In this document: in pieces, positions 48,655-52,842 of the stretch | Position numbering within the stretch: the first letter of the stretch is position 1 | How the letters are laid out: each line of letters opens with the position of its first letter | From: Patescibacteria group bacterium | GTDB lineage: Bacteria; Patescibacteriota; Patescibacteriia; JAHJFT01 | DNA length: 64,000 bases | Reading direction: 5' to 3' | Assembly: GCA_028710985.1 (NCBI GenBank) | Contig: JAQTTB010000001.1 | Location: 167,397-231,396 of the forward strand | Translations under genes and position numbers: made by a program | The notes under the pieces: model-generated | What the model was told of the DNA's origin: nothing | Database searches by the model: none | What the model saw: the letters and a program-made list of their open reading frames with translations, nothing else

Positions 48655-49011
48655 TAAATAAGTAAAATAAATTTACTTATCCGCCTGACGACTTTAACAA
48701 TGACGAATAAACTCACTAAAAAGCTTGAATGGTTGTAGAAATTGACCGATTAGTATTCCTCGGCTCAATCCCTTACGGGACTTACACCTGGAACCTATCA
48801 ACCTCCTCATCTCGAAGGAGTCTATAATGAAATCTAATCTTAGGGACAGCTTCGCGCTTATATGCTTTCAGCGCTTATCCAAACCGAACGTAGCTACCCA
48901 GCGATGCCCTTGGTAGGACAGCTGGTACACTAGAGGTTCGTTCACCTCGGTCCTCTCGTACTAGAGGCGAGACCCTTCAAATTTCGACGCCCATGGTGGA
49001 TAGGAGACCGA

Positions 49012-49780
49012 CATTCTGTTACTTTGCCAAACCACATCCGTTTTCAACCGGTGCTCTGTGGTGATTCCGACTTTCGTCGGAACTCTGCATGTCGCCATGC
49101 AGTTCGGACTATATCTTATCCCGATATATTTCGGAATTTCGGCATATAGTCTCTGAGGATTTCAAGGAATCTAATACAATTTTCTTATTAATTTTTCGGT
49201 ATTTACCGGCGCAATTCATACTGTAAGCAAAGCAAATAATTCTTTTAGCGCCATCAATGGTTGAGTGATCTGCATTCTCCATCATATCCACTATGCGCTT
49301 AAAAATTACCATTGCGTCATGTTTCTTTGAAATTAAAGGATACTTCTCGAAAAATGGAATTATCGTCTTTCTTAAGTCATTCCTATTTCTAACCACATAC
49401 ACCAGCGTATCATCTTTTTTATTTCGAGCGTGATTATTTTTGATATAGCCACAACCGAAATAATTTTTAATCGCTTCCAGAGTTTCTTTACGCAAATAAC
49501 TCTGATTTATGTGGAATTCAGGAATGAATTTAAGACCTGTTTTCATTTTTGCGTCTTTATAAATCGCAATATGAAAAGTTCCTTCGCCTTCAACGAAACC
49601 GGTAATATACCATGGATTTAGATTCTTCGATCTTTCCTGCTGATTATCTGCACTCATCACTTTTTTACTTTAATATATATATTATATCAAAGTAGTGTGA
49701 GATTCACAAGCCTCACTCCTTTTTGAGGCTCTCCAGACTTTCCAGCATTTAGCCGAATTTATAGACAGCACGATCTTCAT
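49012..49780 (-). mobile_element. Group I intron in 23S rRNA at the I-CreI-type site (E. coli ~2593, after GAGACAGT)
   Basis: The 23S exon sequence GAACGTCGTGAGACAGT | TCGGTCTCCTATCCACCATGGGCG is split by 769 nt that contain a LAGLIDADG ORF. Confidence 0.8.
49109..49660 (-). CDS. LAGLIDADG homing endonuclease (single-motif, I-CreI-like)
   Basis: WYITGFVEGEGTF is a LAGLIDADG motif near the N-terminus. 183 aa, AT-rich, encoded entirely within the 23S intron. Confidence 0.8.
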   Translation of the reverse strand: MMSADNQQERSKNLNPWYITGFVEGEGTFHIAIYKDAKMKTGLKFIPEFHINQSYLRKETLEAIKNYFGCGYIKNNHARNKKDDTLVYVVRNRNDLRKTIIPFFEKYPLISKKHDAMVIFKRIVDMMENADHSTIDGAKRIICFAYSMNCAGKYRKINKKIVLDSLKSSETICRNSEIYRDKI

Positions 49781-52700
49781 ACTGTCTCACGACGTTCTGA
49801 ACCCAGCTCGCGTACCGCTTTAATTGGCGAACAGCCAAACCCTTGGGACCTTCTCCAGCCCCAGGATGCGATGAGCCGACATCGAGGTGCCAATCTCCGT
49901 CGTCGATATGGACTCTTGGACGGAATCAGCCTGTTATCCCCGGAGTAGCTTTTATCCGTTGAGCTCCCGCCGTCCTACTTCGAACGGTCGGATCACTAAC
50001 TTCTGCTTTCGCAACTGCTCGACTTGTAGGTCTCGCAGTAAAGCCGACTTATGCGTTTGCACTTTCAGCCCGATTTCCATCCGGGCCAAGTCGACCTTTG
50101 TAAACGCCTCCGTTACTTTTTAGGAGGCAACCGCCCCAGTTAAACTACCCACCAGTTACTGTCTCCCAAACCGGATTCACGGTTCGAGATTAGAATACAC
50201 ACAACACAAGGGTGGTATCTCACTGTTGTCCCGAAGGACTCCCACCTATTCTGAACATGCGGAGCATGTATCCAATAACAAGTTATAGTAAAGCTTCACG
50301 GGGTCTTTTCGTCCAGCCATGGGTAAATCGCATCTTCACGACTCTTGTAATTTCACCGAGTCCCTCGTTGAGACAGTCCCCCAGTCGTTATGCCATTCGT
50401 GCAGGTCGGAACTCGCCCGACAAGGAATTTCGCTACCTTAGGACCGTTATAGTTACGGCCGGCGTTCATCCGCGCTTAAGATCAAGGCTTTTCCCGAAGG
50501 ATAACCTCTCCCCTTAACGTTCGGACACTGGCCAGGCATCAGCCCCTATACATCACCTTACGGTTTAGCAGGGACCTGTGTTTTTGGTAAACAGTCGCTA
50601 GGAATACTTTAGCTGCGCCCCAACACGAGGTTGGGGAGGCTTTATCCCGAAGTTACAGCCGCTTATTTGCAGAGTTCCTAAACGAGGGTTCTCTCGTACG
50701 CCTTGGCACACTTATGCCCACCCACCTGTGTCGGTTTACAGTACGGATACCTAAAAGTTTAATGCTAGAGGCTTTTCTTGGCTCCACGTCTTCTCATATT
50801 GGCCGGTATTACCAGCCTTTAGATCGCCTGCGGCCTGATGGCCCGCGGATTTACCTGCGGACCGGCGCGCAAACGCCCTACGCATATAACCAAAATACGC
50901 TAGAGATTTCGGGAAGCGTCCCCCCATCGCGCTCTTAGGTAGTGCAGGAATATTAACCTGCTCATCCATCGGTTACGCCTTTCGGCCTCACCTTAGGACC
51001 GACTAACCCTGGGACGAAGGTCGTTGCCCAGGAAACCTTGGGTTTACGGCGGAGAGGATTCTCACCTCTCTTTTTGTTACTAATGCCAACATTCTCTCTT
51101 CTCATCGCTCCACCGAACCTCACAGTTCGACTTCAACGCAATGAGAACGCTCCTCTACCACTCGCTCCGATAAATCGGAACGAATTCTCGTCTTCGGTAC
51201 TAAGTTTTAGCCCCGAAATATTTTCGGCGCAAAGCAACTTGACCAGTGAGCTGTTACGCTATCTTTAAAGGATGGCTGCTTCTAAGCCAACCTCCTGGTT
51301 GTATAAGTCGCTCCACAGCCTTTCACACTTAACCTAGATTTTGGGACCTTAGACGGAGATCTGGGCTTTTTCCCTTTCGACTAATGGAGCTTAGCCCCCA
51401 CAGTCTGACTGCCAGGAACACTTTACGGTATTCGGAGTTTGGTTAGGAGGAGTAGATTTCTCCCTCCGTCCCATTCAGTGCTCTACCCCCGTAAAGCTAT
51501 TAACTGACGCTAGCCCTAAAGCTATCTCGAGGAGAACCAGCTATTACCGAGTTCGATTGGAATTTCTCCGCTATCCACAACTCATCCCCGCGTGTTGCAC
51601 GGCGCGTGAGTTCGGGCCTCCATTCCGCCTTCGCGGAACTTCACCCTGGTCATGGATAGGTCACCCGGTTTCGGGTCTTGCATGCGCTACCATAGACGCC
51701 CGTTAAGGCTCGCTTTCACTATGGCTCCGCCCCCGCAGGGGCTTAACCGGCAACGCATGACAAACTCGTTGGCTCATTCTTCAATAGGAATGCCGTCACC
51801 CCGACTTGCGTCGGGGCTCCGACTTTTTGTAAGCACACGGTTTCAGATACTGTTTCATCTCCCTTCCGGGATGCTTTTCAACTTTCCCTCGCGGTACTTG
51901 TTCACTATCGATCACAAGAAGTATTTAGTCTTGCCACATAGTCGTGGCTGATTCCCACAGGATTTCACGAGTCCCGTGGTACTCTAGGTTGAATGCTATA
52001 AATAGAGATCCCCTTTCGCGTACAGGGCTATCACCTTCTTTGGCTCCGCTTTCCAGCGGATTCTACTAGGGAAGATCGCTTTATTTACCAAGGCTTGCAA
52101 GCGCCTTGAACGCAAACACCCGCAACCCCCCGCAGACATATGGTCTTGCAACCTTAGGCGCAAACTCTATTTCACCCGAAGGTGTCACTTTGTTCACGCT
52201 TGGTCTGCGAGGTTTGGACTGATCCCTTTTCGCTCGCCACTACTCAGGGAATGGGCTGACCGATAAGTATCCGGCTCGCAAGATACGAGCCAAATACTTA
52301 AGGCCAGCATTGTTTTCTGTTCCTCTGGCTACTGAGATGTTTCACTTCGCCAGGTTGCCTTCTTGCACCTATGTATTCAGTGCAAAATATCCCATTCTTC
52401 CAATGGGATGGGTTTCCCCATTCGGATATCCCCGGGTCAAAGGTTGCTTGCCACCTAACCGAGGCTTTTCGCAGGCTGCTACGTCCTTCATCGTCTTCTT
52501 ATGTCGAGTCATCCTCCGTGCGCTCTTCGTGCTTCTACAACCATTTAAACTTTTTAGTTCAAATGGCACGTACAAGATTTTAATGATGCTATTTACTCGT
52601 CATTATTAAATTGTCAATGTTCACTTGGCCTTGTGGCCAAACCCTGTTCGTCTGGTCGCAAGTGAGTCAAAAAACCGCCCGGTCGTGTCCAAGCGGTGCG

Positions 52701-52813
52701 AAAACAAGCATTAAAACTGCGTCAACTGATTGGACACGTATTTGATTGGCTTGAAACTCTCATATTTTAGCGAAAAAATGCTCTTTTTATGATAATTATT
52801 TTAAACTGCCCAT

Positions 52814-52842
52814 ATTATACATATATGTATAATGCCTGTCAA
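52814..52842 (-). promoter_or_regulatory. Near-consensus sigma70 promoter (TTGACA-17-TATAAT) ~270 nt upstream of the 23S 5' end
   Basis: Minus strand: cccgccTTGACAggcattatacatatatgTATAATatggg. Confidence 0.7.

Follow-up and report, generated by a model that had tools for sequence, protein, structure and literature searches.

The stretch of DNA analyzed here, a 64,000-nucleotide window on contig JAQTTB010000001.1 of a Patescibacteria group bacterium (assembly GCA_028710985.1), contains on its minus strand a 23S ribosomal RNA (rRNA) gene that is interrupted by an insertion of 769 nucleotides (nt) with an open reading frame (ORF) for a LAGLIDADG protein. We consider it highly probable that this insertion is a mobile group I intron with a LAGLIDADG homing endonuclease, placed after U2604 (Escherichia coli numbering) in the only 23S gene of the window. 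The features on which this interpretation is built are as follows.

49781..52539, minus strand: 5′ exon of the 23S rRNA, E. coli 1-2604 (RF02541, 2219.5 bits; last base U2604 by MAFFT alignment)
49012..49780, minus strand: group I intron, 769 nt, after E. coli 23S U2604, recognized by sequence reading, same-site homologues and covariation
49109..49660, minus strand: LAGLIDADG homing endonuclease ORF, 183 amino acids (aa), with a GTG start at 49660 and the next ATG at 49657
48729..49011, minus strand: 3′ exon of the 23S rRNA, E. coli 2605 to the end, 283 nt (RF02541, 248 bits)

Scanned against Rfam at the gathering threshold, the whole window yielded a single bacterial large subunit (LSU) rRNA (RF02541, LSU_rRNA_bacteria; 52539..49749, minus strand, 2219.5 bits). 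In this full-window cmscan the model was reported as complete (positions 1-2925) and yet ended at 49749, 31 nt inside the intron, leaving the 3′ exon unannotated. When the 3′ exon was searched alone (48600..49011), model positions 2631-2925 were found at 49011..48729 with 248 bits. The 23S gene extends from 52539 to 48729 on the minus strand with one interruption, and the bounds of the insertion, 49780..49012, are exactly those given in an earlier note on this DNA. Read on the minus strand, GAACGTCGTGAGACAGT is followed by the 769 nt of the insertion (ATGAAG to CAGAATG) and then by TCGGTCTCCTATCC, the 23S sequence being split between GAGACAGT and TCGGTC. Spliced, the gene is 3042 nt long and 71% identical to E. 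coli 23S. The same note had estimated about 3040 nt of mature rRNA with no second large insertion, and the MAFFT alignment agrees, as it shows only small insertions and deletions and no second intron in the window gene. The expansions relative to E. coli in domain I (52539-52200) measure 30 plus 22 (about 52) nt at 228-232, 35 nt at 275 and 89 nt at 291, none of them of intron size. LSU calls that end inside an intron are a likely source of truncated 23S annotations in genomes of the candidate phyla radiation (CPR). The practical value of the finding lies in annotation: pipelines will mis-call the present 23S gene and may list a free-standing "hypothetical protein" in it, and the default threshold of the group I intron model RF00028 misses the intron.

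The insertion site was determined by aligning the spliced window gene with the annotated E. coli 23S gene (rrl; L001 841-3744) using MAFFT. The last base of the 5′ exon corresponds to U2604 and the first base of the 3′ exon to U2605, and the conserved GAGACAGUUCGGUC is lost in any other register. The intron is located in the peptidyl-transferase region of the 23S rRNA. In the intron-less target, where CGTGAGACAGT is joined directly to TCGGTCTCCTA, six of 11 positions are symmetric about the insertion point (GAGAC/GTCTC plus G/C). This dyad is the best within 12 bp on either side, the next best (5/11) being centered 8 bp upstream, at the center of the I-CreI site. Such symmetry fits a homodimer that would cut across the insertion point, although the fit is only suggestive.

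At the gathering threshold, RF00028 gave no intron match in the window scan. In E-value mode an alignment was obtained below that threshold, with 36.9 bits against the cut-off of 50, in which UCAGAGACUAUAUGCCG fell on the R consensus and AAGAUAUAGUCC on the S consensus. The score is low because the ORF, which places about 460 nt between Q and R, splits the core in a way that the model cannot bridge; it reflects a limit of the model and not an absent feature. Since RF00028 matched only below threshold, the structure was established by covariation among 17 homologous introns, aligned after removal of the ORF interior. The elements of the ribozyme (P, paired regions; J, joining segments) are listed here in the order of the transcript.

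49781..49786, minus strand: 5′-exon strand of P1, GACAGU, which pairs with GCUGUC (49769..49764), its final U forming the U.G pair of the splice site
49764..49775, minus strand: internal guide sequence, consisting of GAUCG (P10, 49775..49771), U, and GCUGUC (P1, 49769..49764)
49752..49757, minus strand: 5′ strand of P3, UUCGGC, which pairs with GCCGAA (49143..49138)
49738..49750, minus strand: P element, AAAUGCUGGAAAG (J3/4, 5′ strand of P4, J4/5)
49653..49701, minus strand: P5b/P5c extension, in which CUCACAC (49701..49695) pairs with the start-codon region GUG-A-UGAG (49660..49653)
49636..49645, minus strand: Q element, AAUCAGCAGG (J5/4, 3′ strand of P4, start of P6), inside ORF codons 6-9
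49145..49156, minus strand: R element, UCAGAGACUAUA (J6/7, 5′ strand of P7, bulged A), inside ORF codons 169-172 (SETI)
49138..49143, minus strand: 3′ strand of P3, GCCGAA, part of the P3/P7 pseudoknot
49118..49137, minus strand: P8 hairpin, with compensatory changes in 6/6 pairs
49106..49117, minus strand: S element, AAGAUAUAGUCC (J8/7, 3′ strand of P7), which holds the ORF stop UAG (49111..49109)
49064..49102, minus strand: P9 (49102..49085) and P9.1 (49083..49064) hairpins, with compensatory changes in 5/7 and 7/7 pairs, respectively
49012, minus strand: omega-G, the last nucleotide of the intron; 22/22 introns (window plus 21 related loci) end in G

Without guidance, RNAalifold recovered P1, P3, P4, P5, P5a, P5b, P6, P6a, P8, P9 and P9.1 from the 17 introns, and P7, which forms a pseudoknot with P3, and P10 were added to give a structure of 83 pairs. 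In this structure 94.1% of the cells are paired, compared to 31-39% when the 3′ partners are slid by one to three columns. Compensatory changes on both sides were found in 38 pairs, and none of 500 shuffles reached any of the five measures used. All eight pairs of P1 are paired in every sequence, with the splice-site U.G in 17/17. P3 is likewise paired in 100% of cells, and 4/6 of its pairs are compensatory, the compensated forms in relatives including UCUGAC/GUCAGA, UCUAGC/GCUAGA and UUUGGC/GCCAAA. P4, formed by GCUGG (49746..49742) and UCAGC (49643..49639), is fully paired, P7 is invariant and 98.5% paired, and the P5b and P5c helices are 97.5% and 95% paired. P10, between GAUCG and CGGUC of the 3′ exon (49010..49006), is complete in the window (5/5 pairs), and 73% of its cells are paired in the homologues. 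The window intron has no P2, and some relatives carry an extra hairpin in the loop of P1. Judged by this covariation, the insertion is a genuine group I intron, as the earlier note had proposed, with the core, pseudoknot, P1 and its U.G pair, P10 and omega-G all present. The check by RF00028 that it had suggested was passed only in part: the gathering score was missed, R and S were aligned by the model, and P, Q and the helices were supplied by covariation.

The protein encoded in the intron was also described correctly as a single-motif LAGLIDADG protein of 183 aa. It matches PF00961 (LAGLIDADG_1) with an E-value of 3.9e-23 and 82.7 bits against a cut-off of 23.1, as one domain at residues 19-123. 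Its motif ITGFVEGEG aligns with LAGFVDGDG of I-CreI, with E26 in the place of the catalytic D20 and Q53 in that of Q47. No variation at residues G25, E26, G27, Q53 and K113 was seen among 35 homologues, which share 52-72% identity with the window protein. The AlphaFold2 model, with a predicted local distance difference test (pLDDT) score of 84.6 and a predicted template modeling (pTM) score of 0.78, has an alpha-beta-beta-alpha-beta-beta-alpha fold, with helices at 16-26, 55-68 and 93-106 and strands at 27-35, 43-53, 72-75 and 86-90. The best Foldseek match is I-TnaI (5gkk; TM score 0.89, target-normalized; 35% identity), followed by domains of I-SmaMI and the archaeal rRNA-intron enzyme I-Vdi141I, with E-values of 1e-12 to 1e-14 for these matches including I-TnaI. 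A sequence search of the PDB gave the halves of I-SmaMI and I-OnuI (E about 1e-42 over the whole chain) and I-TnaI (1.5e-26), and I-CreI was not among the best 60 matches. The identity to I-CreI is 21% over 116 aa; the I-CreI sequence used was checked against PDB chain 1n3e_A, to which it is equal in length and nearly identical. A protein search returned 762 homologues at E <1e-5, the best of them with 52-73% identity, and those with names come from Candidatus (Ca.) Falkow-, Buchanan- and Taylorbacteria. By these comparisons the protein is an ordinary single-motif LAGLIDADG enzyme without close kinship to I-CreI. It adds one more sequence to a large family of site-2604 enzymes, with a predicted 22-bp target in universally conserved 23S rDNA.

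The body of the ORF lies inside the loop closed by P6/P6a, and both of its ends overlap the ribozyme core. The two candidate start codons, GUG (49660..49658) and AUG (49657..49655), are both located in the 3′ strand of P5b. The first 10 codons are taken from the 3′ strands of P5b, P5 and P4 plus P6, with codons 3-10 (S-A-D-N-Q-Q-E-R) read from P5′, J5/4, P4′ (Q) and P6, and the codons in the Q element encode the N-Q-Q-E that is invariant in the family. At the other end, the last 16-18 codons overlap the core, and codons 168-183 (SSETICRNSEIYRDKI) are read from P6′, J6/7, P7 (R), P3′, P8 and J8/7-P7′ (S). The segments SADNQQER and SSETI(R/C) are the most invariant of the protein family because both overlap the ribozyme core. 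In relatives in which P3′ reads GCUAGA, the frame stops there, and thus the length of the protein tail follows the RNA sequence. The core-overlapping ends are without confident structure in the AlphaFold2 model (pLDDT <50 at residues 1-9 and 179-183, with a mean of 51 at 171-180). Extension of an ORF into the core of its intron has been described before (PMC3984707).

Related loci were collected by a scan of one genome per GTDB species, which returned 29 loci. In 21 of these, labeled Buchanan-, Kuenen-, Magasanik-, Vogel- or Kerfeldbacteria or Parcubacteria/Patescibacteria, 744-849 nt lie between the same exon words, GAACGTCGTGAGACAGT and TCGGTCTCCTATCC. All close relatives of the intron and of the protein come from CPR/Patescibacteria assemblies, which supports the placement that had been proposed for the window from its sequence. 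The window intron is at most 76% identical in nucleotides to the retrieved introns, its protein at most 73%, and its 23S at most about 88% identical to that of the relatives over the conserved 3′ end. Some loci with the same site-2604 intron are titled "uncultured Gammaproteobacteria", "Nanoarchaeia archaeon" or "Aerophobetes" (L003, L008, L011, L014, L015, L016, L023, L024 and L026). Their 23S resembles CPR 23S, and L015 hardly differs from the Vogelbacteria locus L013; these titles are probably wrong, or the contigs mis-binned. When the spliced window 23S was used as a BLAST query, the alignments to related genomes broke at 2105/2106, 2415/2416, 2605 and 2655/2656, among other places (L003, L004, L005, L006, L008, L009, L010, L012, L020, L021, L022, L023 and L025), a pattern that indicates extra insertions at other 23S sites in these genomes, which the window lacks.

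These findings agree well with what is on record for CPR bacteria. Tsurumaki et al. (2024, J Bacteriol; PMC11270868) surveyed the rRNA genes of 65 CPR phyla and found insertions in 82% of the 23S genes, 45% of these being of group I by Rfam. LAGLIDADG_1 ORFs were concentrated at 1917, 1931, 1952, 2593, 2604 and 2657 (23IS6-8 and 12-14), and 2604 is a frequent site of LAGLIDADG_1 group I introns in CPR 23S (PMC11270868). The same authors showed that I-ShaI, a CPR enzyme from another site, cleaves the DNA of its insertion site and dimerizes, and they proposed acquisition of such introns by the CPR ancestor followed by retention (PMC11270868). In the summary given in that survey, Brown et al. showed the removal of such insertions from CPR transcripts. 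All elements of the finding, from the intron and its site to the type of enzyme and the layout of the operon, are on record as typical for CPR, and the sequence of the window copy is new. Current understanding is not challenged by any of this, and the element is ordinary for this group of bacteria. The overlap of the ORF with the core and an internal promoter are not mentioned in PMC11270868, where a text search for "promoter" gave no occurrences.

From the anatomy, conservation and covariation observed here, we infer the following course of splicing, DNA cleavage and homing. The RNA would fold with P1 placing a U.G pair at the 5′ splice site, with the P3-P8 core and its P3/P7 pseudoknot, and with P9 and P9.1 behind it. 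Free guanosine would attack the 5′ splice site set by P1 (GACAGU with GCUGUC), and the 3′ splice site would be set by omega-G and P10 (GAUCG with CGGUC). Ligation of the exons, GAGACAGU joined to UCGGUCUCC, would give the 3042-nt 23S rRNA with the junction GAGACAGU-UCGGUC. The endonuclease is predicted to act as a homodimer on intron-less 23S at the pseudo-palindrome of GAGACAGT and TCGGTCTC, centered on the insertion point, and the predicted target duplex carries CGTGAGACAGTTCGGTCTCCTA. Repair from an intron-bearing copy would then spread the intron. The endonuclease may also aid the folding of the intron, a function reported for the LAGLIDADG protein from the 23S intron of Thermotoga neapolitana.

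Several points weigh against the interpretation as a mobile group I intron. The RF00028 score stays below the gathering cut-off (36.9 versus 50 bits; E 6.4e-7), and the symmetry of the target is modest, with a binomial P of 0.034 for at least six of 11 positions. Splicing is read from the anatomy, and the activity of the 2604-site enzyme is a prediction. Furthermore, with one rRNA locus per genome, homing would need an exchange of DNA between cells, which for CPR is hypothetical.

The earlier note had placed the intron at the I-CreI site near 2593, which is the homing site of Cr.LSU, and had thereby implied an enzyme of the I-CreI family. The 22-bp recognition sequence of I-CreI, which we take to span about E. 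coli 2586-2607, does overlap the insertion point, the flanking exon GAACGTCGTGAGACAGT is the sequence read by I-CreI, and both enzymes are of the single-motif LAGLIDADG type. However, the only possible register puts the insertion between U2604 and U2605, the insertion point of Cr.LSU (after 2593) lies 11 nt upstream of that, the centers of the two dyads are 8 bp apart, and the window protein, with its 21% identity to I-CreI, is far closer to many other LAGLIDADG enzymes, including I-SmaMI/I-OnuI and I-TnaI. As 2593 and 2604 are also separate sites in the CPR survey (PMC11270868), we give the earlier assignment of site and family next to no credence. It is also very improbable that the insertion is an intervening sequence which does not splice and is excised by RNase III without ligation, leaving a fragmented 23S rRNA. 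Elements of this kind are known in bacterial 23S genes and probably occur in CPR (PMC11270868), and they would agree with a sub-threshold RF00028 score, but they would not account for a complete group I core with strong covariation, P1, P10, the U.G pair and omega-G. Moreover, their known sites, 23IS2 and 23IS4, are elsewhere and not in the peptidyl-transferase center, and intron sites are biased to the 3′ region (PMC11270868).

More weight, though still in the range of the unlikely, is given to an intron that splices while its ORF is no longer kept for mobility, being retained mainly as a maturase or for its core-overlapping ends and inherited vertically. The closest solved relative, I-TnaI, comes from a Thermotoga 23S intron, and maturase-like activity has been reported for the LAGLIDADG protein encoded in the 23S intron of T. 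neapolitana (PMC3984707). Acquisition by the CPR ancestor and retention (PMC11270868) would be in line with vertical inheritance, as would the single rRNA locus in the window. On the other hand, a related CPR enzyme is an active nuclease (PMC11270868), and the invariance of the catalytic E26, Q53 and K113 in 35 homologues argues for selection on the nuclease function. The maturase and nuclease roles are not mutually exclusive.

Compared to known systems, the window intron shows both shared and distinct features. I-TnaI is, like the window protein, a single-motif LAGLIDADG enzyme of a group I intron in bacterial 23S, for which the T. neapolitana report suggests a possible second role as maturase; its host is a hyperthermophile, unlike the CPR host of the window, and the Thermotoga introns are presumably inserted at a different 23S position, near 1931. 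Cr.LSU with I-CreI (Chlamydomonas chloroplast 23S, 2593) and I-MsoI share with the window a group I intron in the same region of 23S helices, an ORF in the P6 loop and a homodimeric single-motif enzyme, and the recognition sequence of I-CreI overlaps that of the window, whose insertion lies 11 nt farther downstream. The I-CreI ORF is confined to the loop, whereas that of the window runs into the ribozyme core. I-ShaI (Ca. Shapirobacteria 23S, 23IS7) is, like the window protein, a single-domain LAGLIDADG_1 enzyme encoded in a CPR intron; it is the only CPR enzyme of this kind characterized biochemically, belongs to a different site and is reportedly closest to I-CeuI (42% identity). The introns reported at site 2604 in CPR (PMC11270868; probably 23IS13 by the order of positions) agree with that of the window in position, Pfam family, group I type, CPR hosts and a single-domain enzyme, with no essential difference other than the new sequence of the window copy, and the 769 nt of the window insertion are well over the 100 bp that define this class.

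A further feature of the intron concerns the expression of its ORF.

49681..49709, minus strand: promoter-like element TTGTGA, 17 nt, TGnTATAAT (10/12 matches, with TG), its end 20 nt ahead of the GTG start

Of the 20 homologous introns amenable to scoring, 19 have their best sigma70-like match (9-11 of 12) in the corresponding place. An exact TATAAT is present in 15/20 and TGn in 15/20, and the spacer is always 17 or 18 nt. The TATAAT hexamer lies atop the P5c hairpin, and its invariance is not explained by pairing alone because the lower stem of P5c covaries freely. A candidate with 12/12 matches upstream of the 23S gene suggests that the host uses the same consensus. We raise as a tentative proposal, to which we give less than an even chance, that a conserved promoter of the sigma70 type, with an extended -10, belongs to the intron family itself and lies in the P5 extension, so that the endonuclease mRNA would be transcribed apart from the rRNA precursor. 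CUCACAC, the P5b partner of the start-codon region, is part of the spacer between the hexamers, and a transcript begun after the -10 would lack it. Partition-function folding was applied to the full 5′ part of the intron and to a transcript that begins 7 nt past the -10. The accessibility of the start codon rose from 0.35 in the former to 0.74 in the latter in the window; it rose in two of seven homologues and not in the other five, and the case for sequestration of the start codon on the precursor is weak. The promoter interpretation is weakened as well because RNA structure places constraints of its own on the -35 and the spacer, and there may be a reason at the RNA level for the conservation of TATAAT. 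One such reason, a tertiary contact in which TATAAT would act as tetraloop receptor and the GAAA loop of P9.1 as its partner, was rejected: the sequence misfits the receptor motif of 11 nt, and TATAAT persists in homologues that lack the GAAA loop.

If the proposal is true, ribosomes would be kept off the folding ribozyme, and the dosage of the endonuclease would be uncoupled from the very high transcription of rRNA. The arrangement would then be similar to that of I-TevI in the td intron of phage T4, where the endonuclease has its own promoter inside a group I intron and RNA structure masks the translation start in transcripts that read through (PMC2988022), and would place it in a cellular rRNA intron. 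The window resembles td in having a sigma70-like element in the intron and start codons that pair with a strand between the -35 and the -10. I-TevI differs in that it belongs to the GIY-YIG enzymes, its intron interrupts a protein-coding phage gene, and its control has been demonstrated by experiment, whereas control in the window is a proposal and the accessibility calculation gave inconsistent results across the homologues. No description of such an arrangement was found for CPR rRNA introns, and a possible internal promoter would be a small addition to how such elements are expressed.

The surroundings of the 23S gene include the following features.

52814..52842, minus strand: sigma70-consensus promoter candidate, TTGACA-17 nt-TATAAT, 12/12 match, upstream of 23S
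52533..52558, minus strand, with its partner at 48715..48740: 26-bp stem bracketing the 23S gene, an inverted repeat that is 92% complementary
48368..48483, minus strand: 5S rRNA gene (RF00001, 83.5 bits), 245 nt downstream of 23S

The bracketing stem is probably the processing stem expected for 23S. The linkage of 23S and 5S described in the earlier note is confirmed by this 5S gene, which is located just outside the span that had been considered (48731-52842), and the near-perfect promoter reported there turns out to match the consensus in full. Between that promoter and the 5′ end of 23S (52539), a terminator-like hairpin of nine pairs (six G-C) followed by TTTTTT is present at 52674-52697 on the minus strand. 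It could mean that the promoter is not that of the rRNA, that the leader is read through by antitermination, or that a short RNA is made there. The adjoining ORFs encode a methyltransferase and a GNAT acetyltransferase. The same Rfam scan gave eight tRNAs in the window and no match to small subunit (SSU) rRNA across its 64 kb, which extends the earlier statement that no 16S gene occurs within 12 kb. In Patescibacteria, 16S and 23S genes are commonly located apart from each other (Brewer et al., bioRxiv 10.1101/705046).

The 23S-5S spacer contains, at 48619-48653, an exact copy of the first 35 nt of the 5S gene (48449-48483). On the minus strand, 5S nt 1-35 are followed there by a 29-nt GC hairpin, TCCGCCTACGCTTCGCTTCGGCGGACAGG, then by CATATCGAA (5S nt 36-44) and by unrelated sequence. 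The copy is a truncated and interrupted pseudo-5S upstream of the intact 5S gene, and such a partial duplication was found in none of the 22 related loci examined. Among the tRNA genes, tRNA-Ala(CGC) and tRNA-Leu(TAG) are located upstream of the rRNA promoter on the same strand (53517-53713). The usual occupant of the 16S-23S spacer in linked operons, tRNA-Ala(TGC), stands alone at 45058-45132, 3.2 kb beyond the 5S gene and on the opposite strand.

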